A stretch of 58,771 nt of DNA, taken from positions 1-58,771 of IMG/VR virus record IMGVR_UViG_3300031578_000039; one strand, written 5' to 3'. Position numbers and translations under genes: made by a program. The notes below the pieces were generated by a model. That model worked only from the letters and a program-made list of their open reading frames with translations. It was not told where the DNA came from and searched no databases. This document shows, piece by piece, positions 3,606 to 46,305 of this stretch (positions within the stretch are counted from its first letter, which is position 1; every line of letters begins with the position of its first letter). The DNA is from a virus. Lineage: Duplodnaviria; Caudoviricetes.

Positions 3606-4226
3606 ATGAAAAAAAAGATAATATTACATTTATGTGCCGACATTGGGAGCGATAGTAGATTCTACCAATTAGATGACAATTATGAAGTTATTTTAATTGG
3701 TGAAAAGATAGGAGTTGAAAACTATGAGCCGCCTGAAAATGTACATGGAATAATTGCAAATCCTGTATGTACTGAATTTTCAACCGCTAATGGATTCCAT
3801 AAGCAAAACGACTATAAAAAAGGAATGGAAATGGTTAACCATTGCATAAGGATAATAGAAAAAGCAAATCCGAAATGGTGGGCGATAGAAAATCCTGCAA
3901 ATGGTAGATTAAGAGACTTTTTAGGAAAACCTATAATAACATACCAGCCTTGGAGATACGGAAGCCCTTGGACTAAAAAAACAGCATTATGGGGAAGTTT
4001 TAATATACCAATTCAGTTGTATGATAATTGGGAAGATGTACCAAAGATTGATGAACTTTATATAAGACCCGGCAGAACAAAACCAGCATTAGCATTTTTA
4101 CATAAAAGTGCTATTGATTTAATACCTGAAATGCAATGGGCGAAAGAACATATTAAACGTGATTCTGATATTAGGAGTATGTGTTCATCAGGATTCGCCA
4201 AAGCATTTTACGATATTAATCCTTAA
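3606..4226 (+). CDS. Compact DNA cytosine-C5 methyltransferase-like protein
   Basis: ILHLCADIGS (motif I-like), ANPVCTEFS (PC-like motif IV), IENP (motif VI). Confidence 0.75.
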   Translation: MKKKIILHLCADIGSDSRFYQLDDNYEVILIGEKIGVENYEPPENVHGIIANPVCTEFSTANGFHKQNDYKKGMEMVNHCIRIIEKANPKWWAIENPANGRLRDFLGKPIITYQPWRYGSPWTKKTALWGSFNIPIQLYDNWEDVPKIDELYIRPGRTKPALAFLHKSAIDLIPEMQWAKEHIKRDSDIRSMCSSGFAKAFYDINP

Positions 4227-5020: not shown

Positions 5021-5308
5021 ATGAAAGAAAATACGAATACCCACAAACCTAGCAATGCAATTTACACATTGTTAGCTGCTTTTAAAAATAGGCAATTGAA
5101 ACGCTGGTTCTATGAATTTGAACATGGACACGAATTTCTATTGAAAGAAGAAGCCGATATAATTTGCGAAACTAGATTTGACGACAAATATAAGTGGATG
5201 AACGACACTATAATACAAGCACTAATAAAGACGAAAGTAAAAGCAATGTATAAAAAGAGATACCCAGATGCGAAACGATGGACGCTGCCTATTTTTTATT
5301 GCAGCTAA
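5021..5308 (+). CDS. Hypothetical cassette protein
   Basis: Starts in the hairpin loop; stop is the TAA of TAAC. Confidence 0.7.
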   Translation: MKENTNTHKPSNAIYTLLAAFKNRQLKRWFYEFEHGHEFLLKEEADIICETRFDDKYKWMNDTIIQALIKTKVKAMYKKRYPDAKRWTLPIFYCS

Positions 5309-5453: not shown

Positions 5454-6635
5454 ATGAAAACTATAAAAAGAAACAACGGAAACGACATTAAGATTTATGC
5501 AACTACATTAGAAGATGTTGCATTTGAGCAAATTAAAGAACTTGGAGAGTTTGAACCTTACCAAGATTCTAAAATCAGAATTATGCCTGATTGCCATGCA
5601 GGAGCAGGATGCACAATTGGAACTACAATGGAGATTAAAGACAAAATTACACCTAATTTAGTTGGTGTTGATATTGGTTGTGGAATGCTTACAGTAATGT
5701 TAGCCGACAACGAAATAGATTTGCAAAAACTTGATGCTGTAATTAACGAATTTATTCCAAATGGGTTTAATATACATTCCGAGCAAAAAGCAGAATTTGA
5801 GTTTGGTAAACTGATTGCTAAAAACTTAAATATTGACCGAGCTAAATTATCAATTGGGTCGTTAGGTGGTGGAAATCATTTTATCGAAGTTGGTAAAAAT
5901 GGTAATGGAAATTTGTATTTAGTAATACATTCAGGTTCTCGAAATATTGGTGGACAGGTTGCGAAATATTACCAAAACATTGCCATTGATAATTTAACTG
6001 ACAATTCAAATGAACGTGAATTACTTATTGAAAACCTGAAAAAAGAAGGCAGGCAAAATGAAATAGGGAAAGAGTTGAAAAAACTTAAAAAACCAATTAT
6101 AAATAAAGATTTAGCCTACTTAACTGGAACTGATTTTGATAATTATATGCACGACATGAAGTTAATGCAGGAATACGCTGTATTAAACCGTAAAACAATG
6201 GCAACGATTATTTTAAAAGAAGCTGGATTAAGCGCAATGCACTCATTTGAAACAATACACAACTATATCGACTTTAATAGAATGATTTTGCGTAAAGGTG
6301 CTGTTTCTGCTGAAATTGGAGAAACTTTATTGATTCCAATTAATATGCGTGACGGTTCAATTATTGCCAAAGGAAAAGGTAATGCCGATTGGAATTACTC
6401 AGCACCGCATGGCGCAGGTAGATTGATGGGGAGAAAGGAAGCACATAGAAAACTTGATTTTGACGAATTTAAAGAGCAAATGAAAGATGTTTATTCCACT
6501 TCTGTTTTAACTGAAACATTGGATGAAGCTCCAAACGCATACAAACCGATGAATGAAATTTTAGAAGCTATTTCAGAAACGGCAGATGTTTTAGAAATAA
6601 TCAAGCCTATATATAACTTTAAAGCTCATTCCTAA
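5454..6635 (+). CDS. rtcB: RtcB family RNA ligase
   Basis: MPDCHAG, VGVDIGCGM, GSLGGGNHFIE, HSGSR, HNY, SAPHGAGR, DEAPNAYK motifs. Confidence 0.97.
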   Translation: MKTIKRNNGNDIKIYATTLEDVAFEQIKELGEFEPYQDSKIRIMPDCHAGAGCTIGTTMEIKDKITPNLVGVDIGCGMLTVMLADNEIDLQKLDAVINEFIPNGFNIHSEQKAEFEFGKLIAKNLNIDRAKLSIGSLGGGNHFIEVGKNGNGNLYLVIHSGSRNIGGQVAKYYQNIAIDNLTDNSNERELLIENLKKEGRQNEIGKELKKLKKPIINKDLAYLTGTDFDNYMHDMKLMQEYAVLNRKTMATIILKEAGLSAMHSFETIHNYIDFNRMILRKGAVSAEIGETLLIPINMRDGSIIAKGKGNADWNYSAPHGAGRLMGRKEAHRKLDFDEFKEQMKDVYSTSVLTETLDEAPNAYKPMNEILEAISETADVLEIIKPIYNFKAHS

Positions 6636-6728: not shown

Positions 6729-6752
6729 TAACGATTGTGTAAACGCACCTTT
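6729..6752 (+). repeat. Array-terminal conserved site, copy 2
   Basis: TAACGATTGTGTAAACGCACCTTT. Confidence 0.85.
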
Positions 6753-6785
6753 TAAAATAATCATTAAGACTAAAAAAACAAAGAA

Positions 6786-7055: not shown

Positions 7056-7235
7056 AATTAAGTTATAATATTTTTTTATAGTTCGTTTTATTTTTGTTAA
7101 TTTTGAATTATTATTAATCACTTAAATTCAATTATTATGCCAGTAAAACCGCCATCGCCGCCTCCAACGTCACCAGAGCCAGAAACTACTGAAACAGAAG
7201 ATGAATAGTTTTGAATAACTTAACAATAGGAATAC

Positions 7236-7998: not shown

Positions 7999-8299
7999 AT
8001 TGATATATCTTCCATCCATTCATTTGAGCTAAATTAAGCTTGTTTAAATCATTCTCATATTGAGTTTGAACCATTCCCTTAACTTTACCTGCTCTGGTGT
8101 GTCTGCCATAAGAAAACTGCCCCCCATTGATCTCAATAATTATTTTTTCCTTTAAGATACAGTAATCAGCTCTGTACTGCCTTTTAGTTTGCATTATCTT
8201 ATTAAAGATTACTTCTTCCTTAACATCATGCCCTAATCCTATCAAATAAGCCTTAAGCTCTTTTAATAGAGCTAAATGTATCACATTCTTTCCTGCCAT
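7952..8299 (-). CDS. DUF559/Vsr-like endonuclease
   Basis: YRADY..IIIEINGG..HTR..D.NK.NLAQ.NGW motif. Confidence 0.85.
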   Translation of the reverse strand: MAGKNVIHLALLKELKAYLIGLGHDVKEEVIFNKIMQTKRQYRADYCILKEKIIIEINGGQFSYGRHTRAGKVKGMVQTQYENDLNKLNLAQMNGWKIYQFTYQQLMRKEYKDYL

Positions 8300-8375
8300 A
8301 TAGCAAAGATACAAAACATGCTGTACAACACATGGTTAAAATTTGCATAGTAAGATTTAATTTATAGATTTGTTG
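8294..8375. promoter_or_regulatory. Repeated divergent promoter/operator block, copy 1
   Basis: TTTG-N19-TAGATTTG on +, TATCTTTG on -, CATGCTGTACAACACATG between; near-identical to 10096-10177. Confidence 0.8.
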
Positions 8376-8528
8376 ATGAAATTAATAGGTTTTGGTATTA
8401 AATGTAGCACAACTGATACACTAAGCTATCGAACGAGAACATACATACTTTAAAACGAGAATAAAAGATTGAATTATTGACATAACTGCCTATAAATTAT
8501 ATACTTTGTTATATGCTTTTATAGTGCG

Positions 8529-9128: not shown

Positions 9129-9152
9129 TAACGATTGTATAAACACACCTTT
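9129..9152 (+). repeat. Array-terminal conserved site, copy 3
   Basis: TAACGATTGTATAAACACACCTTT. Confidence 0.85.
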
Positions 9153-9174
9153 AATTAATTTAAAATCTTAAACC

Positions 9175-9666: not shown

Positions 9667-10101
9667 CCCCGTTTTACGTCTCCACTCATTAAATAAATCA
9701 GTATCATTTCTATATGTTAGTGATTTTAGGTTTATTTTTTGCAAACCCATGTAATTACCGTATTTTTTAATCAATGATGGTGCTTTACTGTTAATATTTT
9801 CTAAAGAATATGTTAATACACTTTTCTTTACAAGTCTTATTCCATTGTAGTTTCCTCCTGTTAAATTTAGATCAGGAGTACCAAGTGTTGGGCGAGGGTT
9901 CTTTTTGTTTTTGAATGCTGCATAACTATTTCCTAGATAACTAGGCTCTATCGGTTTATCATTAGGCATTTCACCGTCAAGTAATTGATTTTGATTAAGC
10001 CTTATAGCAAAATCAGCATTTTTCATTATTATTTTATCGGCTTCTGCTTCAAAATTGAAAGCTCTTAATTTATCTGCCAGTTGTCTTCGTGTCTGTGCCA
10101 T
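9661..10101 (-). CDS. Putative neck/tail-completion (virion morphogenesis) protein
   Basis: SYAAFK.KK...PDLNLTG pattern typical of gp10-like/virion morphogenesis proteins. Confidence 0.6.
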   Translation of the reverse strand: MAQTRRQLADKLRAFNFEAEADKIIMKNADFAIRLNQNQLLDGEMPNDKPIEPSYLGNSYAAFKNKKNPRPTLGTPDLNLTGGNYNGIRLVKKSVLTYSLENINSKAPSLIKKYGNYMGLQKINLKSLTYRNDTDLFNEWRRKTGL

Positions 10102-10177
10102 ATAACAAAGGTACAAAACATGTTGCACAACACATGGTTTAAATTTGCATCGTTAGATTTAATTTATAGATTTGTTG
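10096..10177. promoter_or_regulatory. Repeated divergent promoter/operator block, copy 2
   Basis: TACCTTTG on -, CATGTTGCACAACACATG, TTTG-N19-TAGATTTG on +. Confidence 0.8.
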
Positions 10178-10202
10178 TTATAAATATTTTAAAATTACTG
10201 AT

Positions 10203-10560: not shown

Positions 10561-10824
10561 ATGTACAAATACAGAGCAATGTGGGAAAGAATCGAAAAAC
10601 TAGAAGTTATAAAAGAAACACCTAAGCAGGTAGTTTTTATAAATGAGCATGGGTTGCAAGACCGAGCGCTTAAAAAAACAAGTTATTTTTCATGGCATGA
10701 CACATTTGAAGAAGCCAAACAAGCTTTAATTGATGAAAAACAGTTTAACATTGATAAGCTTAAAAGACAATTAGAAAATGTAAATGATAGACTAAATATC
10801 GTGCGCGGGCTGCATGAAGCCTAA
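10561..10824 (+). CDS. Hypothetical cassette protein
   Basis: Stop coincides with TAAC. Confidence 0.75.
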   Translation: MYKYRAMWERIEKLEVIKETPKQVVFINEHGLQDRALKKTSYFSWHDTFEEAKQALIDEKQFNIDKLKRQLENVNDRLNIVRGLHEA

Positions 10825-10870
10825 CGATGGTATAAACACACCTTTCAATTAAACAACAAATTAAAATATC

Positions 10871-11407: not shown

Positions 11408-11465
11408 TTGTGGGCAATATGGTTAATTCTGTATTGCCCATAAACAATTGTATAAACACACCTTT
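11408..11465 (+). mobile_element. ORF-less mini-cassette plus terminal site copy 5
   Basis: TGGGCAATA..TATTGCCCA hairpin fused to AAACAATTGTATAAACACACCTTT. Confidence 0.55.
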
Positions 11466-11515
11466 AAATATAAATTCATATGAATATGAAAGTTAAAGAA
11501 TTAAAAAGTTGGTAA

Positions 11516-15522: not shown

Positions 15523-15828
15523 ATGAATTTAGAAAAAAGAGTAAAAGAACAATTATTAATTAGAGGCTTTTCAAGTGAGCTACAACTTAATAACAGGGGA
15601 TTAATTGGAGCAACTATTGATGAAACAACACTAGATTTAGTTAAAAATTTAACTATACCTGTTGTTAACGATATGTTGCCTTTATCTGACTACGCTAAAG
15701 AAAAGCTAAAATATATTAACGGGCATTGGATGGTGCGTGAATTTCCTAAATTAGATAATATTGACCTACAATGGATAGGAGCTGTGCTTGATTTGTTAGA
15801 AGAACTAAAGTTAGGCAATTATCGTTAA
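15523..15828 (+). CDS. Hypothetical cassette protein
   Basis: Contains hairpin-encoded LVKNLTIPV. Confidence 0.7.
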   Translation: MNLEKRVKEQLLIRGFSSELQLNNRGLIGATIDETTLDLVKNLTIPVVNDMLPLSDYAKEKLKYINGHWMVREFPKLDNIDLQWIGAVLDLLEELKLGNYR

Positions 15829-15857
15829 CATTGGTATAAACACACGTTTTAAAACAA

Positions 15858-16118
15858 ATGCCTATGAATATGAAAGTTAAAGAATTAAATATTTCAGAAT
15901 CTGAAAGATTTAAAGAAAAATATCAAGAAATATTGCTTAATGTGAAAGAAAGATTTAGAGTAAAAGATGCTAAGTATATTCAAATATCAGAATCAAAAGC
16001 AAGTAGAATATTATCAGGAAATCAATTTGATATGCTAACACTTTGCGAAATTGCTTCTTTTGTTGGATACGATATTGATATTAAAATAACAGATAGAAAT
16101 AATAATAATTTTCACTAA
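15858..16118 (+). CDS. XRE-like HTH regulator
   Basis: AKYIQISESKASRILSG..MLTLCEIASFVG. Confidence 0.75.
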   Translation: MPMNMKVKELNISESERFKEKYQEILLNVKERFRVKDAKYIQISESKASRILSGNQFDMLTLCEIASFVGYDIDIKITDRNNNNFH

Positions 16119-17392: not shown

Positions 17393-17722
17393 ATGGAGAA
17401 TTTTACAATCAAAAAATCTATTTACAAAGACGTAGAGACAAAATATTCTATTGATTCATACAATGAATTTTACGGAAAATTTTACAACTCAAGCAATTGC
17501 ATAGTATATATTGGTGGTTTTATTAAGGATAAAAAATCATTTTATATTCAAAAACTAGACAGATATTACAGTATTGAAATAAGAGATATTGTAAATGGAG
17601 GACGTGATAGTTTAAGATTAGAAATTGAACGATCTTATAGAGATTTTGAGTTTAAAAATAATATCACAAAATCAGAATTTTTAGATAAAATAAGTGATTT
17701 TAAATATATGTTAGATTTATAA
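17393..17722 (+). CDS. Hypothetical protein
   Basis: ORF track. Confidence 0.65.
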   Translation: MENFTIKKSIYKDVETKYSIDSYNEFYGKFYNSSNCIVYIGGFIKDKKSFYIQKLDRYYSIEIRDIVNGGRDSLRLEIERSYRDFEFKNNITKSEFLDKISDFKYMLDL

Positions 17723-17727
17723 ATGCG

Positions 17728-17787
17728 AAAACATGTTGTACAACACATGGTTAAAATTTGCATAGTAATATTTAATTTATAGATTTG
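17728..17787 (+). promoter_or_regulatory. Repeated promoter/operator block, copy 3
   Basis: AAAACATGTTGTACAACACATGGTTAAAATTTGCATAGTAATATTTAATTTATAGATTTG. Confidence 0.8.
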
Positions 17788-17855
17788 CTTATGAAATTAA
17801 CGATTGAGCAAACACAACATTGATTAAACTACAAAAATAAATTAAACTTTGGATT

Positions 17856-19023: not shown

Positions 19024-19079
19024 TATTGGCGGTAACACTGGTGTAAACACACCTTTTAATTAATTTATTAATAAAAACC

Positions 19080-20650: not shown

Positions 20651-22777
20651 ATGAATACACAAAAACATAAATACTCTGATTTAACACTAGATCAATATGA
20701 GGAGCATTTCAGCAATTTTCTTATTGATTCATGGTCTTATTCCAAAGTAGCAACATTCACACGAAATGAGAAGGATTTCGAGATGAGATATGTTTATCGT
20801 GAAGATTATAAAATTTCAGCATCAAGTGTATCTGGCTCTGCCTATCACGAAGCTCTAAAGCTATATTTTGAAGGTTTAAAGCAAAATGTAGTGTGCGATC
20901 TTACAACACTTAACCAAGAGGCGTTTGAGTACATAGAATCAATACATGCTAATGAATGGAAATTACAGAAAACTACGCCAACAGTTGAAAATTGCATAGA
21001 GAAAGCATTTAAAAACTCTACAATCTTATTAAATAATTTCTACGCTGAAAAATCAATATACGAAAACGATATTGAAGAAGTATTGTTTGTTGAAGAAAGG
21101 TTCAACGAATGGATTTCACTTAACGGCGTTGATTTACCTTTGCCTTGCCATGCTGTAATTGATTTGGTTTATAGATCAAAAGATAATAAAATAGTTGTAT
21201 TAGATCATAAATCAAAATCATCTTATACCGATGAAAAAGATGCAAAATTCGTGATCGGGAAACAGGCAATTACATATGTTAAAGTATTAGAGGCAAGAAC
21301 TGGTTTAAACGTTGACAGGGTTTGTTTTATAGAAAATAAAGCATCAAAAAATAAGGATGGTTCTTCGCAATTAAAAAAGATTGATATTGAATTAGACAAA
21401 GATATAATAAGGCTGTATGAGGCAATGCTTTATGAGCCTATAAAAAGAATGACACAGGCTGTTTCTGACCCCGACTATGTTTACATAACAAATGACAATG
21501 ACAGTTTTGTAGATAAGGCTGAAATTTATCAATTCTGGACTAAAACAATGATTGCAGAAGTTGAAGATTTTAATATTCAGGATTCAAAAAAAGAATTAAT
21601 ACAAAAGAGATTAAAAAAGATACGTGATGCCTCAATTTCTTCAATTAACCCTAAAATTATCAGTGAATTTAATAAGAATGCCGCTGAATTTATCCAATAC
21701 AATCTAAACAATAAAAACATGACATCGCAAGAGAAGATAGAGCATATTTTAAGAACTTTCGGCATAGTCTCAAAGGTTCAGCACACATTTTCAGGATATT
21801 CAAGTAATACATTTTTATTAGATGTAAATGCAGGTATCCCATTATCAAAGATTCACAGGCATAAACTCGACATTGCAGCAGCTCTTAATGTTGGCAATAT
21901 TCGTATTATGAAAGATTTATTTGTACATGAAGGAAAATCATACCTTGCAATAGAATCATCAAAGAAAAGAGAAGATAATTTACTTTTCGATATAAAATAT
22001 TTAACTGGTGTAAAAATACCTATCGGATTAGATAACTTCGGAAATACGGTAGTATGGGACTTAGAAAACAATTCAACGCCTCACATGCTTGTATGTGGAG
22101 CAACGGGTTCTGGAAAATCTGTATGTCTTAAATCAACAATAGAATATGCGAAACACGCAGGGATAAATGACATTATTATTTTTGACCCTAAATTTGAATT
22201 TACTAAATATTCATCTAAAGGAATATCAGTACTTAATGACATTAAGGATATTGAACTAGAAATGAGGGAGCTTGTTGAAGAAATGCAGGAAAGAGTTAAG
22301 TCAGGCATAAATAGCAAGAAGCTTATAATTTTTGATGAGTTCGCTGATGCGGTTGCTAGTTCTAAAAAAGGCAAAGAACTAGATATTATCGAAAACATTC
22401 AAATCGGTACTTATGCGCCAAAAAAAGTAAAAGGATTATTCGGTGAACACACAGAACAAGGATTACCAAAAATGGCAATGAGGAAAGTCGGAGAGTTTAA
22501 ATCGCTAGAAGAAAACCTAAAAATATTGCTACAAAAAGGAAGATCAACAGGAATAAGAATAGTAGCAGCAACTCAAAGAGCATCTGTAAAAGTAATAACA
22601 GGAGATGCAAAGGTGAATTTCCCTGTTCAGGTTTGTTTTAGAGTTCCAAAAGAAGTAGATTCAAAGGTAGTAATTGATGAATCTGGTGCAGAAGTATTAT
22701 ACGGAATGGGTGACGGTCTTATTAAATCGCCAGAATACTTAAACGTTATTAGATTTCAAGGATTCTTTAAACCTTAA
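20651..22777 (+). CDS. PD-(D/E)XK nuclease fused to an FtsK/SpoIIIE ATPase
   Basis: N-terminal IDLV...VLDHKS; C-terminal PHMLVCGATGSGKS, IIFDEFAD, ATQR, GMGDGL. Confidence 0.9.
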   Translation: MNTQKHKYSDLTLDQYEEHFSNFLIDSWSYSKVATFTRNEKDFEMRYVYREDYKISASSVSGSAYHEALKLYFEGLKQNVVCDLTTLNQEAFEYIESIHANEWKLQKTTPTVENCIEKAFKNSTILLNNFYAEKSIYENDIEEVLFVEERFNEWISLNGVDLPLPCHAVIDLVYRSKDNKIVVLDHKSKSSYTDEKDAKFVIGKQAITYVKVLEARTGLNVDRVCFIENKASKNKDGSSQLKKIDIELDKDIIRLYEAMLYEPIKRMTQAVSDPDYVYITNDNDSFVDKAEIYQFWTKTMIAEVEDFNIQDSKKELIQKRLKKIRDASISSINPKIISEFNKNAAEFIQYNLNNKNMTSQEKIEHILRTFGIVSKVQHTFSGYSSNTFLLDVNAGIPLSKIHRHKLDIAAALNVGNIRIMKDLFVHEGKSYLAIESSKKREDNLLFDIKYLTGVKIPIGLDNFGNTVVWDLENNSTPHMLVCGATGSGKSVCLKSTIEYAKHAGINDIIIFDPKFEFTKYSSKGISVLNDIKDIELEMRELVEEMQERVKSGINSKKLIIFDEFADAVASSKKGKELDIIENIQIGTYAPKKVKGLFGEHTEQGLPKMAMRKVGEFKSLEENLKILLQKGRSTGIRIVAATQRASVKVITGDAKVNFPVQVCFRVPKEVDSKVVIDESGAEVLYGMGDGLIKSPEYLNVIRFQGFFKP

Positions 22778-23038: not shown

Positions 23039-23902
23039 ATGGCAACTAAAATTGAATGGACAGAAGCAACGTGGAATCCTATTATTGGCTGTTCCAAAAT
23101 CTCACCGGGATGTGAGAACTGCTATGCTGAAAAAATGGCGGGTAGATTATCAAATATTGTAAGTACTGCACATTATTTAAGAGTTGTGGAGCAAAATGTT
23201 AGCGCACCATTCGTACATAGAGGGTTACAAATATGGAATGGACAAACTCATTTTGTAGAATCAGCATTAGATAAGCCACTAAAGCGTAAAAAGCCTACAA
23301 TGTACTTTGTGTGCAGCATGGGAGATTTATTTCACGAATCAGTTCCTTTTGAATGGATTGATAAAGTAATGGCTGTAATTGCTCAAACGCCACAGCACAC
23401 TTTTCAAATCCTAACAAAACGAGCTGACAGAATGAATAAATACTTTGAACGCTCAGAATATGATTTTGGCTATAAAATAACACCTAATATATGGCTTGGA
23501 GTAACTGTCGAAAACCAAGAACAGGCAGATAAAAGGATACCAATTTTATTAGAAATTCCGGCAGCAATTCGATTTGTAAGTATAGAACCTATGCTTGGGC
23601 AAATATATTTAACTGATTTTGAAAACCCTTTTTATAATTACATAGATAAAACCGAAAATATTAACAGCATTGACTGGGTAATATGTGGAGGCGAAACAGG
23701 AACTAAAGCTCGTCCTATGCACCCTGATTGGGTTAGATCATTAAGGGATCAATGCAAAGAAACTAATACGCCTTTATTCTTTAAATCATGGGGAGAGTAT
23801 GCACCATTTACGCATGAAAAAGGATTTGAGATGGTAAAAGTCGGCAAAAAGAAATCTGGTAATCTAATTGATGGAAAGCAATACAGAGATTTTCCCAAGT
23901 AG
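23039..23902 (+). CDS. DUF5131 / Gp37-Gp68 family protein
   Basis: TKIEWTEATWNP..GCSKISPGCENCYA, SMGDLFH, LTKR, DWVICGGE. Confidence 0.95.
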   Translation: MATKIEWTEATWNPIIGCSKISPGCENCYAEKMAGRLSNIVSTAHYLRVVEQNVSAPFVHRGLQIWNGQTHFVESALDKPLKRKKPTMYFVCSMGDLFHESVPFEWIDKVMAVIAQTPQHTFQILTKRADRMNKYFERSEYDFGYKITPNIWLGVTVENQEQADKRIPILLEIPAAIRFVSIEPMLGQIYLTDFENPFYNYIDKTENINSIDWVICGGETGTKARPMHPDWVRSLRDQCKETNTPLFFKSWGEYAPFTHEKGFEMVKVGKKKSGNLIDGKQYRDFPK

Positions 23903-24642: not shown

Positions 24643-27384
24643 ATGAACAAATTATCAATTTATTGCGATTTGCGAAGCATAGGATGGATTATAACAAACG
24701 GAAACAATATCATAAGAAAAGGAATTAAACGTATAAATGTAGATTTTGATACTTATTATGAGTTTATTTCTGGAAATGTTATAAGCAAAAGAGTTAATAG
24801 AAGATTAAAAAGAACCGCAAGGCGAAACAAATGGAGGCGAAACAGCCGCAAAGAAAGCCTTATTAATTTCCTTACATGTCTTAACATGATGCCAACAAAA
24901 GAAATGTTAAGCACTGACAAGCTTAGTCGTTATAAACTAAGAGTTAAAGCGTTATCAAAAATAGTTTCTGCAAAAGAATTAGGCTTAATAATGTTTGACT
25001 TACAGAAAAAAAGAGGTTATAAATCCATGCGTGGAGTAATGGCAGATGGCAGCGATTATTTAGACCAAATAAAAGAGCATGAAGAAAATTTAAAAAGCTT
25101 CCCTTCAATATCTGCATATCTTCTCACCATTGATAGCGATAAGGATGTAATATTTACAAGAGAAAGTTACGAAGCTGAATTTGACAAAATTTGTCAAAAA
25201 CAAATAACAGACTCAAAAATTACCGAAAAATTAAGAAGTATAATATACTTTCAGAGACCATTAAGGAAAGGTGCGATTTCTAATTGTAATTTGGAGAAAA
25301 ACAGAAAAGTAACGCACAAATCTCATCCTGATTATCAAACATTTAGGTGTTATCGTGATGCAAATAACATAACAATATTAGATAACCAAATGAAAGAAGT
25401 GCCGATCTCTTTAGAATTTAGATACAAGTGGGCTAACAATCTATTAAAAGGTAATGGATTAACTAAAGCTTCTTGCTGTAAAGATTTGGGAATTAAAAAA
25501 AGTACAGGCTATTCATGGTTAAGCGGTAAAAGATTAGAGCCTAGTTCCATGTGTCAGCTTAATGAATTTGACTTTAACTCATTTGATCTTTGGCATAACT
25601 TGTATTCTGCTACCGATGAAGCTAAATTAATTAATTTGCTTATACAAAAATCGGGATTTACAGATGAGCAAATAGAAAGGTTAATTGACATTGATTTTAA
25701 GGGCATGGGATGGGGTGAATTTAGCCATAAAGCAATTAACAGATTATTGCCTTATCTCCAAAAAGGCATGAAATTAAAAGAGGCTATATTAAAAGAGTAT
25801 GGAAGCGTTGATATGAGCAGTGATATTACTTTACGTAACCTTTTATTAGAGCAGGTATTTGAGAGTACTAAATCTCTGATTGAAGAAATTAGTAAACAAT
25901 ATCAGATTGGAGAAATGCAAATAGAACTTAATCAATCGCTGAAACAAGGCAATAAAATTAGAAAACGAATATCTTCAGGCAAACGTAAAAAAGAAAAGTG
26001 GGAAAAAGAGAATGAGCAAACAATAATTGATGCAGGAGCAGAACCAAGCTCATATAATTATCACAAATTAAAATTATGGGAGGAATGGGACGGTTACAGC
26101 CCGTATGATCCTGATATAAAAATTGATTTAAAAGACTTATTCACAGATGAGTATAACATCGACCATATCGTCCCAAAGTGTAAGATAATGGAACGAGGTT
26201 TTAATAATCAATGCTTGTCGAAAAAGAATCTTAATGAGCATAAAGATCAATTAACTGGAATAGAATTTGCTGAAAAAACAGGAATCATAGAAAAATATAA
26301 ATCATTGATAGAAAGCCTGAAAATATCAGATACAAAGAGGAAATTTCTATTTATGAAATCTAATGAAATCCCAACAGATTACGTAAGCTCAATGTCTGGA
26401 TCTGACTACAATACAAAATGCTTTTTAACACTACATGAAAATTCTACTTGTATCCCAAATAAAATAGTTAATCGCTATTATAGAGAGTGGAACTTCAACC
26501 AATTTAATGATGAAGATGCAAGAAGTAGTTTAATGAAAGCACTTGTATTGTGCAATATGAGCAATGAAACTGTTAAATACTTTGACAACTTGGTTGGATT
26601 AGGAGAAAAAAGCATTGGAAGATATAATTTAACTCCTGAAATTACAGATATTGGAGAAATGCCAAATATTTACATGCCGTCTATTAAGCTATATCGTAAA
26701 ATAAAAGGTAATTACTCACCTAGATTTCAGCTTCATAAAGAGACTGTTTACGGTTATCGACCTAAAAAAACAATTAACGGAAAAGGACAGGAAATAATTG
26801 AAAATTACTATAAGGTTAGAAAACCAATTGAAAGCCTAACAAAGCCAATGATGTCAAAAATTATGGATGGTGCTATTTCTAAAATTGTCAATGAAAGATT
26901 TAACGAATGTGGCACAATTGATAAATTCATTGAGAGTATTGAAGAAAATCCATTAATACATAACGGAAAACAAATAAAATCAATTTCTATTGAAGTAAAA
27001 AGTGATGCAGTTATGCCTTTACATTCTACCGATGGGAATGGTAATACTTTCGGGAAAAAACATCATGATAAAAAGATTGATTTTGTTTATAGTTCAGGGG
27101 CCGCATTCATGTATCTCGAAAAAGGCAAATATCGAACCATGCCATTGATGGAATATATTGATAGCCTGAACAATGGTACTATTCATAAATTTGAAAAAAC
27201 ATTTGCAAAAAACGATGTGGTTAAATTTGAAGGAAATCATTACTTCATTTGTGGTATTAGTGACGGAATCGTAGAAATAAGACCAACGCATCAGCTGAAT
27301 GCAGAAAAAGGGATAAAATGCAGTAAAAACAAGATTAGTGAGTTTGAAAAACTAATAATTAACCAATTAGGATATGTTATATAA
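24643..27384 (+). CDS. cas9: Compact type II-C Cas9 homologue; HNH intact-looking, RuvC degenerate
   Basis: SIGW, Arg-rich bridge helix RRLKRTARRNKWRRNSRK, KKRGYKS, IYFQRPL, HNH YNIDHIVP..NN..N..K, PRFQLHKETVYG. Confidence 0.93.
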   Translation: MNKLSIYCDLRSIGWIITNGNNIIRKGIKRINVDFDTYYEFISGNVISKRVNRRLKRTARRNKWRRNSRKESLINFLTCLNMMPTKEMLSTDKLSRYKLRVKALSKIVSAKELGLIMFDLQKKRGYKSMRGVMADGSDYLDQIKEHEENLKSFPSISAYLLTIDSDKDVIFTRESYEAEFDKICQKQITDSKITEKLRSIIYFQRPLRKGAISNCNLEKNRKVTHKSHPDYQTFRCYRDANNITILDNQMKEVPISLEFRYKWANNLLKGNGLTKASCCKDLGIKKSTGYSWLSGKRLEPSSMCQLNEFDFNSFDLWHNLYSATDEAKLINLLIQKSGFTDEQIERLIDIDFKGMGWGEFSHKAINRLLPYLQKGMKLKEAILKEYGSVDMSSDITLRNLLLEQVFESTKSLIEEISKQYQIGEMQIELNQSLKQGNKIRKRISSGKRKKEKWEKENEQTIIDAGAEPSSYNYHKLKLWEEWDGYSPYDPDIKIDLKDLFTDEYNIDHIVPKCKIMERGFNNQCLSKKNLNEHKDQLTGIEFAEKTGIIEKYKSLIESLKISDTKRKFLFMKSNEIPTDYVSSMSGSDYNTKCFLTLHENSTCIPNKIVNRYYREWNFNQFNDEDARSSLMKALVLCNMSNETVKYFDNLVGLGEKSIGRYNLTPEITDIGEMPNIYMPSIKLYRKIKGNYSPRFQLHKETVYGYRPKKTINGKGQEIIENYYKVRKPIESLTKPMMSKIMDGAISKIVNERFNECGTIDKFIESIEENPLIHNGKQIKSISIEVKSDAVMPLHSTDGNGNTFGKKHHDKKIDFVYSSGAAFMYLEKGKYRTMPLMEYIDSLNNGTIHKFEKTFAKNDVVKFEGNHYFICGISDGIVEIRPTHQLNAEKGIKCSKNKISEFEKLIINQLGYVI

Positions 27385-28993
27385 AATAAGATTAGATTTT
27401 GACAGATATATTAGTGAATTCGACGACAGCCACTTAGTTATTATTGATGGGAAAAAGGAATATATCCCGAAATCTATCATTCATTTATTAAAGAAGAAGC
27501 GTAAATTCGCTATCGTTCCTCGGTGGTATTTTGAGAAAAAAACAGATATTACGATTGAAAATATTGAGGAGACTAAATTTATCAGCATTGGAGGAAGCAT
27601 TTTAAATAGTCATAAAGCTGAAAAATGTAGTGTTATTGAAAGTAAAGTTTTTCCTTTAAGAAAAAAACAGAGAGAGCTTGTAAATCATTTTATAAGTAGC
27701 CGATTTATAGCTTGGTTGTGCGATGCAGGAACTGGTAAAACAATATGTACAACTACAATAGCTTATAGCCGTTGGAAAGCAGGATTAGTAAGCAATACAT
27801 TTATAATGTGTCCTGCACATTTAAAAACACAATGGGAAAAATTAATTCTTTCTTACTATCCAGATTTCTCCGATTTTCACATAGTGTCTATTGATTCTAC
27901 CAGTACCGATAATGGGCTTGAAAAAACATTGAAAAAATTCAATGATTTAGATGGTGAAATTCAGCTGATTATTGATGAGAGCCAATACTTAAAGAATAAT
28001 TCAGCAAACAGGTCAAGAAATCTTGAAAAAAACTTCAATGCCGAATACGTTCAGATAGCTACGGCATTTCCTATCGAGAGAAGCGCAGGAGACTTGTTCT
28101 ATCAATTCGGAGTAATGAGCCGTGAAATTATAGGGTGTGAGAATTATGGGCAATATGAGCAAAATTTTCTCATACTTGGCGGTAATGATGGCGAAAGAAT
28201 TGTCGCATATAAAAACACAGAGCAATTAAAGGAAAGGATCAGCCCATACATCGCACGGATGGAATTTAAAGAGGTAAACTCTGATATTCCACCAGTGGCA
28301 GAGAGGTACGTTTATTTCGATTTAAACAAAGAGCAGAAAGAAGCTATTGGCGCAATAGAGAATTTAATAGTTCAGATGCAGACAAAAACAGGATGGTTGC
28401 CAGAGAATAAAAAGTACATGATAGACACTTTTTTACACAAGATATGTAGCGGCTACGTTCCAACACAGGAAGAAATAAATACCACCTTTAAAGACTTCGG
28501 AAAGCTTGGCGAAAGCGCAGATAATATAAGGAAAATAGGACAAATAGCGTATAATCCTTATAATAATAGAATAAAAGCACTAAAAGAACAACTTGAAATA
28601 TTGAGAAATAAACAGGTTATAATTTGGTGCAAGTATATTGATGAAATCAAAACCATTCATTCAGAGATTGGCAATAGCATTGTAATAGATGGAAGTGTGA
28701 CAGGGAAAAAAAGAGATCAGGCAGAGGATGATTTTAAAAGCGGAAAATATCAGTATTTAATAATATCAATAGGCATAAATTCTGGTTTGAATTTTAACAA
28801 CTGCCACAAAACAATTTTCTTTTCTCAGGATTATTCAAGAACAAAGAGAGAGAACGCAAAATTACGAATACAGAGAGCAGATCAAATAAAACCATGTGAG
28901 GCTATATTTATTGTTGCAAATAATAGTCTAGACGTAAGGATATTTGAAAATGCAAAACACAAAAATAAAATTTGCAATATTTTTGAAAAATAA
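27374..28993 (+). CDS. SNF2-like SF2 helicase/ATPase
   Basis: DAGTGKT, IIDESQ, VIIWC, GLNF, RIQRADQ; overlaps cas9 by 11 nt. Confidence 0.9.
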   Translation: MLYKIRLDFDRYISEFDDSHLVIIDGKKEYIPKSIIHLLKKKRKFAIVPRWYFEKKTDITIENIEETKFISIGGSILNSHKAEKCSVIESKVFPLRKKQRELVNHFISSRFIAWLCDAGTGKTICTTTIAYSRWKAGLVSNTFIMCPAHLKTQWEKLILSYYPDFSDFHIVSIDSTSTDNGLEKTLKKFNDLDGEIQLIIDESQYLKNNSANRSRNLEKNFNAEYVQIATAFPIERSAGDLFYQFGVMSREIIGCENYGQYEQNFLILGGNDGERIVAYKNTEQLKERISPYIARMEFKEVNSDIPPVAERYVYFDLNKEQKEAIGAIENLIVQMQTKTGWLPENKKYMIDTFLHKICSGYVPTQEEINTTFKDFGKLGESADNIRKIGQIAYNPYNNRIKALKEQLEILRNKQVIIWCKYIDEIKTIHSEIGNSIVIDGSVTGKKRDQAEDDFKSGKYQYLIISIGINSGLNFNNCHKTIFFSQDYSRTKRENAKLRIQRADQIKPCEAIFIVANNSLDVRIFENAKHKNKICNIFEK

Positions 28994-29683: not shown

Positions 29684-29857
29684 ATGCCAAGTGGAGGTAA
29701 AAGAGAAAATGCAGGAAGGAAATTAAAGTACGGAGAAGCTACAAAAACAGTAGCTTTCCGTGTTCCTGTTTCAATGATAGAAGATTTAAAAAAACATGTG
29801 AAAAATGAGTTTGAAAAACGCAAAAATAGCAATACTACACACTTTCAGCAGAAATGA
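29684..29857 (+). CDS. Small DNA-binding protein (GGKRENAGRK, RHH-like)
   Basis: MPSGGKRENAGRKLKYGEATKTVAFRVP translated by hand. Confidence 0.7.
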   Translation: MPSGGKRENAGRKLKYGEATKTVAFRVPVSMIEDLKKHVKNEFEKRKNSNTTHFQQK

Positions 29858-31058
29858 CAGTACGAGCATAGGTGCTTTGGTGATCAAAGATGAACTGGAA
29901 CGAAAAGGCTATCATGTTGATTTTTGCGACTATTCAAGTGCGTTTAACTATACACACGTACTAGTGTCAATGACCTCTACTGACGATATATTTCATATTT
30001 ATGCAGGGTGCAAAAAAAATAATTGGCAAAACAGAACATTTAAAGCACTTGTAGGAGGTTTTGGTTGCCAGAACCCTATTGCGCTATCCGATTACATTGA
30101 TTATGCTTTTTTCGGGCGTACTGATGGAATTATTGAAGATGTTTTGATTAATCATTTAAAATTCAAAGAGCATCTTTTTAAGATTTCAAAACCTCACATG
30201 GTATCTATTAGGCAGGTTTCAGAATGTTATCCTAATTCAATAAAACACAATGGGGCAAAATGGAGGGAAAAATCGATTGGATGCCCTGTTAAGTGCAAGT
30301 TTTGTTCATTTTCACACACGAGGGATTGGGTAAAAGGAGAATACGAAACTTTTGAATGGCTACTAAAAGGTAGAACACAGGAAGTTCTAATAAAAGATAT
30401 TCCAGAAAAAGTAATAAAAAAACAGGGATGGGTAAAAAGTGCGATTGATGGATATTCCGAAAGATTGAGGTTTAAATATGGAAAGAAATTTGCAACATGG
30501 GAAAACATAGAAAATGCTTTAGACCACTTATGTACATTTAAAGGTACAACTAAATTACAACTATACAATATTCATAATTTCCCAACAGAAACAAAAGAAG
30601 ACATCATAGAGTTTTTTGATTTTTTTAACAATTACGTGGAAGATGCTTACAAGGGCGATGGTAAGCTTATAGTAGAGATACATAATACTCCATTTAGACC
30701 GACATTGTGTACTCCAATGGAAAGGCAGGGTGCGAAATTATTTCCTGCTGCAAAACCTCAGGTAGGATTGTTAAATAATTATTTTAATTATTTGCCAGTA
30801 AAACCAAACTCTTTGACAATCGCATCTAAAAATAATATTCATGTTAAATTCAGCGTTTTTATTGAAAACCCATTTAAGCATTTAAAAGGGCTTATTAGTA
30901 TAAGGTACTCAGACAAGGATATAATAGAAGAAATACTTAGAATTGAAAGTATGTCAGGCGTTAAAGCTTTAGATTATTGTATTAAAAACATAGACATTAC
31001 ACCATATATCCGAGAATACAAAGAAAATGAAGACTTAAAATTCAAGTGGATTAAATGA
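29805..31058 (+). CDS. Radical SAM protein with B12-binding-like N-terminus
   Basis: GCPVKCKFC (CxxxCxxC); N-terminal LVGG..DY.FFG pattern. Confidence 0.8.
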   Translation: MSLKNAKIAILHTFSRNDSTSIGALVIKDELERKGYHVDFCDYSSAFNYTHVLVSMTSTDDIFHIYAGCKKNNWQNRTFKALVGGFGCQNPIALSDYIDYAFFGRTDGIIEDVLINHLKFKEHLFKISKPHMVSIRQVSECYPNSIKHNGAKWREKSIGCPVKCKFCSFSHTRDWVKGEYETFEWLLKGRTQEVLIKDIPEKVIKKQGWVKSAIDGYSERLRFKYGKKFATWENIENALDHLCTFKGTTKLQLYNIHNFPTETKEDIIEFFDFFNNYVEDAYKGDGKLIVEIHNTPFRPTLCTPMERQGAKLFPAAKPQVGLLNNYFNYLPVKPNSLTIASKNNIHVKFSVFIENPFKHLKGLISIRYSDKDIIEEILRIESMSGVKALDYCIKNIDITPYIREYKENEDLKFKWIK

Positions 31059-31303
31059 GGTATAATAAATGGAAATTATCGCATGAAACAGCATTAAAAT
31101 GTTGGTATCCAGATATTTCAAAAATTATGAAATTTACAGGCAAAAGCTATGGTGCTATAATTAATAAAGCTTGGAGATCAGGATTAACAGGAAGCTATAA
31201 AGAAAGAAATTTTACAGGATATAAAAAAACGCCAACTGATGCTGACGTAACAGGAAATTCCCAACGGCTAAAGCCTTATTGTGATTTGCTATTACAAATG
31301 TAG
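31055..31303 (+). CDS. Hypothetical protein, HTH-like
   Basis: GKSYGAIINKAWRSGL. Confidence 0.55.
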   Translation: MRYNKWKLSHETALKCWYPDISKIMKFTGKSYGAIINKAWRSGLTGSYKERNFTGYKKTPTDADVTGNSQRLKPYCDLLLQM

Positions 31304-34126: not shown

Positions 34127-34345
34127 ATGGAACACGAAAATTTGAATACAGAAGAAACCGCCAATAGCGATTTAGGTGCTGTTAGGCGTAGTGCTTTGAC
34201 TTGGTGGAACTCAATGACATTTGAGGAACAATTTTATAAAACGATAGCTTGGTTGAAAAGCGAAAACAGGAATACAACAGAAAGGCATCCGCACCATTTA
34301 ACAGGTAGGGAGATTCAGCAGATTTATGAACTGCATTACGCCTAA
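34127..34345 (+). CDS. Hypothetical cassette protein
   Basis: Hairpin-encoded TANSDLGAV. Confidence 0.7.
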   Translation: MEHENLNTEETANSDLGAVRRSALTWWNSMTFEEQFYKTIAWLKSENRNTTERHPHHLTGREIQQIYELHYA

Positions 34346-34386
34346 CGATGGTATAAACACACCTTTCGATATAAACACCTGTAAAC

Positions 34387-34566
34387 ATGCAACTTATAAA
34401 AAACAATCTTTCAGAAAGTGAAATATTTAAAGCAAAATATAAAGAAGTATTGCAAAATTTGGAAGATAGATTTAGGGTGAAAGATGGGAACAATGGTGCT
34501 ACTCAACTTATGAAGACCCAACATATGAATGGATTGCATGGCGTAACTGTATTTCTTAATACATAA
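34387..34566 (+). pseudogene. Truncated paralogue of the HTH gene at 15858
   Basis: SESEIFKAKYKEVLQNLEDRFRVKD vs SESERFKEKYQEILLNVKERFRVKD, then unrelated. Confidence 0.65.
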
Positions 34567-45550: not shown

Positions 45551-45620
45551 ACGAAAATACACTGCCGAAATTTAGCAAACAAATATTATAACATGTTGTA
45601 CAGCATATTTTGTATATTTG
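45551..45620. promoter_or_regulatory. Divergent promoters with central operator-like palindrome
   Basis: TATTTTCG on -, TATATTTG on +, ACATGTTGTACAGCAT at 45591. Confidence 0.6.
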
Positions 45621-45645
45621 TATAATAATGAAATAAATTAATGTA

Positions 45646-46305
45646 ATGAATTTCCACAATATAAATACAATGTCAGTGAAGCATTGCCAAGAAATGATAA
45701 CAACTGGTAATTATTTAATGATATGTAGATCAAAAACATTTAACCCAATAACAAGGATTAAAGCAATAAAAAAGTACTCTGGATTCATTGAAAAACTCCA
45801 AGAATTATTCGGAAACGAAGATTTTGAAAAGTTAATAGGCATTGATATTTTAATTCAGGGGATGAGATTAAAGCGTAATAATCTAACCCTATTGCATGAC
45901 GGTTTGAAATTATGTTATGATATAAAAGATACGCCAAGAAAGATTCAGTTACTTGACGGATTTAAGGAAAAACATCGTTTAATGTTGTTTCGTTATCCGA
46001 GTGTGGTAGATGCAGAAGCCGAGGCAGATGAGCAAAAAAAGCAGATAGATGATGTATTGAAGCCAATTAAATCAGAAATAGAGAGACTTGATTATAAAAT
46101 AAAGGAAAAAACGCCACTGCCAAATACTAATGAGGTTGAAAAAGAAGATAAACAGTTAGGTTTAGCGATGCACATAGCATTTATAGAGGCAGTTGAAAAC
46201 AATGGTTATTTAGATAGAGATATAACGGTAAACGAGCTTAAATTTAAGTACGATCAGGCTGTTCAAAAAAACAACAAATTAAAAGTAAAACAAGATGGCA
46301 GATAA
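45646..46305 (+). CDS. Putative tail assembly chaperone
   Basis: Directly upstream of and overlapping the tape measure gene. Confidence 0.5.
   Translation: MNFHNINTMSVKHCQEMITTGNYLMICRSKTFNPITRIKAIKKYSGFIEKLQELFGNEDFEKLIGIDILIQGMRLKRNNLTLLHDGLKLCYDIKDTPRKIQLLDGFKEKHRLMLFRYPSVVDAEAEADEQKKQIDDVLKPIKSEIERLDYKIKEKTPLPNTNEVEKEDKQLGLAMHIAFIEAVENNGYLDRDITVNELKFKYDQAVQKNNKLKVKQDGR

Follow-up and report, generated by a model that had tools for sequence, protein, structure and literature searches.

The 58,771-bp IMG/VR record IMGVR_UViG_3300031578_000039 (the window, meaning the whole stretch of DNA analyzed) encodes a compact Cas9 homologue, Cas9c, in which the RuvC nuclease is probably inactive and the HNH nuclease keeps its catalytic residues. 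[quoted passage not shown] We favor, at a probability of about 55%, the reading that the module captures host CRISPR RNAs (crRNAs) through the phage tracrRNA and so blunts CRISPR interference. The window is the entire virus record, a soil phage with a CheckV completeness of 100%, and it encodes a large terminase along with portal and tape measure proteins. The Cas9c gene and its motifs map as follows.

24643..27384, plus strand: Cas9c gene, a 913-aa compact type II-C-like Cas9, RuvC probably inactive and HNH intact, supported by the open reading frame (ORF), TIGR01865, and a structure model
24652..24687, plus strand: RuvC-I motif LSIYCDLRSIGW, residues 4-15, with Y7 at the catalytic Asp position
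24784..24879, plus strand: Arg-rich bridge helix, residues 48-79, helical in the AlphaFold2 model and the most conserved family segment
25912..25932, plus strand: RuvC-II motif, residues 424-430, Glu kept as E428
26152..26244, plus strand: HNH catalytic core, residues 504-534, with D507, H508, N522, N531, and K534; Pfam HNH_4
26515..26541, plus strand: RuvC-III motif DARSSLMKA, residues 625-633, with S629 at the catalytic His position and K632 at the catalytic Asp position

The Cas9c ORF starts with an ATG at 24643 and its stop ends at 27384 on the plus strand, giving 913 aa; the strand opposite carries stops throughout. The NCBIfam Cas9 equivalog TIGR01865 matches the protein at 217.6 bits (E 3.4e-64; cut-off, 100 bits), spanning residues 11-889 and model positions 10-1003 of 1070. 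Pfam returns HNH_4 (E 8.9e-9) and a weak match to the Cas9 helical lobe (Cas9_a), with no match to RuvC_III in the protein. An AlphaFold2 model built from 69 homologues (mean pLDDT 87.1, pTM 0.70) finds SaCas9 as its top Foldseek match (5axw, E 2.2e-34, TMq 0.67), aligned over its entire length across ~1085 alignment columns that include the helical/recognition (REC) lobe. Nme1Cas9, GeoCas9, and ThermoCas9 rank next, and the best 50 matches listed are Cas9 entries only. In the same model and comparison, the C-terminal region resembling a domain that interacts with the protospacer-adjacent motif (PAM) is kept and folded.

Judged from sequence and predicted fold, Cas9c is a Cas9 homologue of type II-C architecture, as the original prediction had claimed from its bridge helix and REC motifs. 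The motifs quoted there (KKRGYKS, IYFQRPL, FSHKAINRLLPYL, PRFQLHKETVYG, LSIYCDLRSIGW, MQIELNQ, DARSSLMKA, and YNIDHIVP) are all found in the translation. The protein had also been called much shorter than typical Bacteroidota Cas9, and the canonical host Cas9s in genomes with a Cas9c relative are indeed open frames of 1248-1586 aa. The search for a PHROG family returned none for the protein, and tblastn against a phage GenBank collection gave no match. An IscB/OMEGA nuclease was considered as an alternative identity and rejected on the length of 913 aa, the REC lobe aligned with SaCas9, and the weak Cas9_a match.

Catalytic positions were mapped through alignments to solved Cas9s, including ThermoCas9 and CbCas9, and to four host Cas9s from genomes holding Cas9c relatives, and columns were counted across 69 aligned full-length members of the family. 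At RuvC-I, the Asp of GLDIG in ThermoCas9 and the host Cas9s corresponds to Y7 (host LGLDLGTNSIGW versus LSIYCDLRSIGW), and this column holds Y in 67 members, F in one, and a gap in one. The nearby D9 falls in a column without conservation (G 45, N 14, D 7, S 2, gap 1) and so is not a displaced catalytic Asp. E428 aligns with the Glu of I(E)LAR in the host Cas9s and is E in 68 members and G in one. DARSSLMKA aligns with DHRHHAxDA of CbCas9 and the host Cas9s; position 629 varies (Y 26, S 23, A 7, T 6, V 5, F 2), and position 632 is K in 62 members, R in six, and C in one. HNH residues D507, H508, N522, N531, and K534 are each invariant (69/69).

RuvC has thus lost three of its four catalytic residues, with Tyr and Lys fixed at two of these positions, and the HNH residues are unaltered. 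The same contrast of dead RuvC and kept HNH holds against the host Cas9s of genomes that also carry Cas9c. From these residue states, RuvC of Cas9c is probably inactive and HNH probably able to nick. A replaced RuvC-I Asp, a retained RuvC-II Glu, a lost RuvC-III His and Asp, and an intact HNH DH..N..N motif had each been read from the window beforehand, and the alignments to solved and host Cas9s bear out all four, leaving RuvC with an incomplete active site.

The family stands apart from other Cas9s in the searches. A word-indexed search returned 74 rows (P0001-P0074) at E <= 1e-127, and the next matches, canonical Cas9s, reach at most 206 bits; an exhaustive search repeats the gap, with full-length relatives at 600 bits or more and the rest at 198 bits or less. 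Canonical Cas9s below the gap carry Pfam RuvC_III, and family rows are without it. The alignment uses the 69 rows of 863-965 aa and leaves out the fragments P0065 and P0071-P0074 (506-638 aa). Within it, segment 34-79, which includes the bridge helix, has the top share of conserved columns (15 of 46 at 90% or more), and conservation is lowest in the C-terminal PAM-interacting-like part. In canonical Cas9s the C-terminal PAM-interacting part is likewise the most variable.

At the DNA level, 11 Cas9c genes were compared, and every one is intact. The sole unsaturated pair, L005/L006 (97% amino acid identity), gives a dN/dS of 0.11, and in the other 13 pairs listed the synonymous sites are saturated (pS at least 0.74; pN 0.14-0.31). 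Because the residue states hold across 69 homologues, the family reads as a selected design and not as decay. The fixed Tyr and Lys substitutions, intact frames, and purifying selection agree with the earlier suggestion of repurposing, for which frame integrity and dN/dS across homologues had been named as the check.

Two further observations concern the boundaries of the family. Protein P0130 (955 aa) represents a distant compact Cas9-like lineage with 26% identity to Cas9c over 848 columns; by alignment, it lacks the RuvC-I Asp and RuvC-II Glu, reads DLRNHVYHA at RuvC-III, and keeps the HNH motif DHIVP. Loss of RuvC with retention of HNH may have more than one origin, or an earlier one. L010, L013, and L017 are family members on short contigs of metagenome-assembled genomes (MAGs) labeled Saccharibacteria and Babeliales, and all other placed members come from Bacteroidota; these three are probably phage contigs binned into the wrong genome.

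The module's tracrRNA was found by starting from the CRISPR repeats of host arrays. It lies 3.9 kb downstream of cas9c on the other strand.

31223..31291, minus strand: phage tracrRNA, predicted at ~67-70 nt, supported by a covariance model, covarying hairpins, and a terminator
31302-31295, minus strand: TACATTTG, a predicted -7 promoter box of Bacteroidota type that lies 4 nt ahead of the anti-repeat, called from sequence

On the minus strand, the element comprises the anti-repeat AGCAAATCACAA (31290-31279) and three hairpins: a TAAGG nexus hairpin (31275-31266), another at 31263-31251, and the 8-bp hairpin of a terminator (31248-31229), which is followed by 7 T. A covariance model built from 11 other loci, with the window left out, recovers 31208-31294 (minus strand) at 68.3 bits (E 5.5e-10), and the next match in the 58.8-kb window reaches 18.5 bits. 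Rfam at gathering thresholds gave no match in the window. Pairing of the three hairpins holds in 88.1% of the cells of a 12-sequence alignment, falling to 36-55% when the partners are slid, with compensatory changes on both sides at 10 of 14 pairs and a covariation score reached by none of 500 shuffles.

The tracrRNA is present in 9 of 11 full loci (the window, L002, L003, L004, L005, L007, L008, L009, and L011). None was found in the 15.3-kb L012 locus or the first 9 kb of its contig, nor in L006, whose contig ends 385 nt past cas9c. Host tracrRNAs with the same scaffold adjoin canonical cas9 genes in L014, L015, L016, L021, L022, and L029.

A TAnnTTTG or near-TAnnTTTG box stands at the equivalent place in all nine phage tracrRNA loci; for the consensus of this -7 box and its distance to the start site, we follow the Bacteroides promoter rule. 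Measured from the box, the anti-repeat ends 15-20 nt away in eight of the nine phage loci and 29 nt away in L011; the distance in four host tracrRNAs is 23-26 nt. Given a transcription start a few bases past the box, most phage anti-repeats are predicted to be only 11-16 nt long. They would cover just GTTGTGAWTTGCT, the 5' end shared by the repeats extracted from genomes G001-G004, and short anti-repeats could in this way pair broadly across hosts. The window's anti-repeat matches the G003 and G004 repeats exactly over 12 nt at their 5' end. The 3' end of a nominal 82-aa ORF (31055-31303, plus strand) overlaps the minus-strand tracrRNA; this ORF has no family match, its similarity to L002 is confined to the tracrRNA stretch, and it is probably not a real gene.

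Host genomes suggest a tie between the phage tracrRNA and resident type II-C systems. Four of five genomes holding Cas9c also hold a canonical Cas9 above the family cut-off. Cas9c is not a recent copy of the host enzyme because identity between the two in the same genome is only 24-31%, and over parts. The host type II-C repeats considered here are 46-47 nt long, with GTTGTGATTTGCT as the start of a repeat of this kind. They also carry a TAnnTTTG box, which fits the repeat-internal crRNA promoters of other II-C systems.

A perfect pairing comes from Riemerella columbipharyngis, whose host array has 46 repeats of 47 nt and 45 spacers. The anti-repeat on its Cas9c contig (L011) is perfectly complementary to repeat positions 2-26 (25/25 nt), compared with 19 complementary nt in the bacterium's own tracrRNA. 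Six of the 45 spacers match L011 at 30/30, one of the matching spacers occurring three times in the array, and they define four distinct protospacers (3614-3643, 5160-5189, 5885-5914, and 7093-7122) within the cas9c, SNF2, and methyltransferase genes. All four carry a 3' flank that fits NARNCG, a candidate PAM of the R. columbipharyngis II-C Cas9. The contig also encodes a phage amidase. Perfect self-targeting beside an apparently intact CRISPR system is a classic sign of an active inhibitor, and by that inference the R. columbipharyngis case supports an anti-CRISPR role for Cas9c. Among the nine spacers of a Segetibacter MAG, two correspond to the Cas9c contig at 29/30 and 28/30, with another at 21/23.

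A search of metagenomes for arrays with a repeat starting on 15 nt that the window's anti-repeat predicts gave two contigs with 56 spacers, none meaningfully matching the window. They were rejected as the window's host CRISPR, as the repeat diverges after the 14 nt matched and the spacers do not match.

Downstream of Cas9c lie the remaining two genes of the module.

27374..28993, plus strand: SNF2-family helicase, 539 aa, whose start overlaps the Cas9c stop by 11 nt; Pfam and PHROG
29805..31058, plus strand: variable third gene, 417 aa, weakly radical-SAM/B12-binding-like; Pfam Radical_SAM below the cut-off

The SNF2 protein matches Pfam SNF2-rel_dom (1.6e-12) and Helicase_C (4.2e-12) and PHROG 62, DNA helicase (1.7e-65). 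When the window is compared with ten related full loci, drawn from viral contigs and genomes, an SNF2 homologue is present in all ten assessable Cas9c loci and lies directly downstream on the same strand in nine; L006 is not assessable, its contig ending 385 nt past cas9c. A complex prediction of the N-terminal 87 residues of SNF2 with full-length Cas9c scored 0.00, which bears neither way on binding.

The third gene sits between SNF2 and the tracrRNA and changes from locus to locus. Its product in the window matches Pfam Radical_SAM at 2.5e-6 and 28.2 bits, under the 29.5 cut-off. Radical-SAM/B12-like genes occupy the same position in L002, L004, and L009, the L009 homologue reaching the Pfam cut-off with an additional weak B12-binding match. 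The position is taken by a TGT/DpdA-like gene in L005, L007, and L008 (PHROG 6059, 3.8e-12), by a DNA methyltransferase in L011 (PHROG 498, 8.5e-38), and by a PAPS-reductase/DUF3440 protein with a ParB_N protein in L003. Several of these family matches lie under curated cut-offs, and NCBIfam gave sub-threshold matches only.

Upstream of cas9c, a DUF5131 protein (23039-23902, plus strand; Pfam 1.2e-97) has a weak match to "radical SAM mobile pair protein A", and its gene and the radical-SAM-like gene at 29805-31058 may form a pair bracketing Cas9c-SNF2. A 708-aa fusion of a PD-(D/E)XK nuclease with an FtsK/HerA-type translocase is encoded at 20651-22777 (plus strand).

The passages of Altae-Tran et al. 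(2023, Science; PMC10910872) on this system describe a phage type II-C Cas9 with an inactivated RuvC, an active HNH, an adjacent SNF2 gene, and no array. They further report a putative tracrRNA nearby, with an anti-repeat perfectly matching the host repeat, and four host spacer matches, and they propose that the phage Cas9 derails immunity through stable complexes with host crRNAs (PMC10910872). The section by Koonin and Makarova (2024; PMC11656645) names the protein "Cas9c" and restates this proposal.

By feature match, not by sequence comparison, the window is a member of this module, already described in 2023. As far as those passages set them out, the window shares all of its features: phage-encoded, RuvC dead, HNH intact, SNF2 adjacent, no array, and a tracrRNA nearby. 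[quoted passage not shown] Compared with the same published passages, the window differs in its retained RuvC-II Glu, its predicted anti-repeat of ~12 nt, and its variable third gene. The original prediction was right in part: no Cas1, Cas2, or CRISPR-like array was found in the complete 58,771-bp record, as it had stated, and the coupled SNF2 gene, the tracrRNA, and the earlier published description were missed.

Known systems place the module further. With canonical Bacteroidota II-C Cas9s (CbCas9, 8iyq; the 1385-aa R. columbipharyngis Cas9), Cas9c has in common the domain order, bridge helix, and HNH motifs. The module also has the canonical II-C tracrRNA scaffold (anti-repeat, TAAGG nexus hairpin, second hairpin, and terminator) and the paired repeat family. 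Cas9c differs from these enzymes in being 300-650 aa shorter, having lost the insert before RuvC-III, having its RuvC Asp, His, and Asp replaced, and lacking cas1, cas2, and an array. The engineered Cas9 D10A nickase, RuvC-dead and HNH-live, is expected to cut only the guide-paired strand. Cas9c is by comparison natural and family-wide, with three active-site substitutions against one, and its nicking is predicted.

In the case of RNA anti-CRISPRs (Racrs), it is an RNA that occupies host Cas proteins. The account of them in Koonin and Makarova presents phage-borne repeat mimics (PMC11656645). Both strategies would strike CRISPR RNA-protein assembly by mimicking a component; Cas9c with its tracrRNA would instead tie up host crRNAs. 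The corresponding passage of Altae-Tran et al. also reports an IscB with an inactive RuvC and an active HNH beside an inactivated Cas12 (PMC10910872). IscB shares the RuvC-off/HNH-on pattern and the lineage but is without a REC lobe and uses an omega RNA.

In the capture reading, the phage tracrRNA would base-pair during infection with the conserved 5' part of the 46-47-nt II-C repeat in host crRNAs, and the tracrRNA:crRNA duplex would load into Cas9c rather than host Cas9. Host guides, anti-phage ones included, would be diverted from a double-strand cutter to an enzyme that at most nicks the target strand, and CRISPR interference would be blunted. RNA pairing in vivo, loading of Cas9c, and the effect on immunity are the steps that we infer. 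Of the three functions that the original prediction had offered, the decoy is favored by a phage tracrRNA and by host spacers in two genomes, and was already in print; the nickase may apply too because the HNH catalytic residues are invariant in 69/69 members.

Several points weigh against capture. A passive crRNA sponge would need no nuclease, yet the HNH residues are invariant, and capture of crRNAs does not account for the role of SNF2. The window's transcribed anti-repeat is predicted at ~12 nt, because the -7 box lies only 4 nt before it, compared with 19-22 nt in host tracrRNAs. A phage duplex stronger than the host's is not general and is seen in one of three comparable genomes: the host tracrRNA of the Chitinophagales MAG G003 has 18 perfectly paired nt against 14/15 for the phage one, and in G002 the two are about equal, in comparisons where MAG binning may mis-pair host and phage. 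Short anti-repeats together with an invariant HNH thus fit a pure "stronger sponge" model poorly. No spacer significantly matches the window among those of Riemerella (45), G002 (9), G003 (13), and two partial arrays. The legend of the Koonin and Makarova figure gives three inactivated RuvC motifs, and motif II of the window keeps its Glu (PMC11656645). In the literature searched, no experimental test of the Cas9c family was found.

The main alternative, which we regard as possible and put forward tentatively, is that Cas9c is an active RNA-guided nickase and not a sponge. Cas9c carrying host crRNAs would nick the target strand, and the SNF2 translocase would act at the nick or R-loop. The targets could lie in the host's array or chromosome, in rival mobile elements, or in phage protospacers, the last to be repaired, recombined, or modified. 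The invariant HNH core (D507, H508, N522, N531, and K534) is what such an enzyme would keep, as is the folded C-terminal PAM-interacting-like region, the most variable in the family, and a helicase gene overlapping the Cas9c stop in a pairing found at 10/10 assessable loci agrees with it. The third gene, a nucleic-acid-modification-type enzyme of four kinds, points the same way, but the modification genes may merely be neighbors in an anti-defense island, and several of their matches fall under curated cut-offs. No target can be named, and nicking phage protospacers would seem costly to the phage.

A broader version, which we consider doubtful, joins Cas9c, SNF2, the variable DNA-modifying enzyme, and the tracrRNA into one machine that borrows host crRNAs to act on DNA sites. 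If true, it might nick the array or chromosome of the host, or it might nick, remodel, or chemically modify phage protospacers so that host Cas9 cannot cut them; HNH, helicase, and third gene would all be working parts, and crRNA sequestration a side effect.

Improbable, in our estimate, is a guide-free domesticated replication, recombination, or packaging nuclease for which the tracrRNA-like element is a relic. The gene does sit in a DNA-metabolism block with the PD-(D/E)XK-FtsK fusion, DUF5131, and SNF2; against this, conservation is highest in the guide-holding bridge helix and REC lobe, and tracrRNA promoter, anti-repeat, covarying hairpins, and terminator are kept in nine loci. Least credible is an ordinary type II system with its array and adaptation genes elsewhere, or a decaying cas9 pseudogene: NCBI and JGI label some members Cas9/Csn1, but the record is rated complete without cas1, cas2, or array, further repeat-like units in the window do not exceed chance (19 matches versus 18.6 expected), frames are intact under purifying selection, and decay would not produce RuvC substitutions fixed to Tyr and Lys.

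Under the capture reading, the Cas9c family would be one of very few cases of a phage turning a Cas effector into a counter-defense tool, and the literature searched offers only a brief computational description of it. New here are a map of the whole module, with tracrRNA, promoter, and terminator, in a complete 58.8-kb phage genome, as well as family-wide residue counts, the variable third gene, and an isolate genome with perfect self-targeting. In that cultivable isolate, R. columbipharyngis DSM 24015, a seemingly intact II-C system occurs together with a resident Cas9c element, perfect self-targeting spacers, and a consistent PAM, making testable the binding of host crRNAs by Cas9c, the need for the HNH nick, and the role of the helicase. 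A natural compact target-strand nickase (~860-965 aa) would also be of interest for genome editing.

Elsewhere in the window, an intergenic motif of ~24-45 nt with the core TAACGATGGTATAAACACACCTTT occurs in ten copies just ahead of plus-strand genes and is probably a phage regulatory or terminator-promoter element.

2246-2290, 6729-6773, 9129-9173, 10822-10866, and 11442-11486: copies of the TAACGATGGTATAAACACACCTTT motif
15826-15870, 17798-17842, 19033-19077, 34343-34387, and 46240-46284: remaining copies of the TAACGATGGTATAAACACACCTTT motif

A repeat of 49-91 nt is present in three to four copies (8294-8384, 10096-10186, 17709-17799, and 45581-45629). It contains the near-palindrome ACATGTTGTACAACACATG and, after it, a TTTG...TAnnTTTG promoter of Bacteroidota type, and it resembles an operator-promoter that early genes share. 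The product of 5454-6635 (plus strand), an RtcB-type RNA ligase homologue (PHROG 1075, E 9.8e-134), may repair tRNA cut by host anticodon nucleases.

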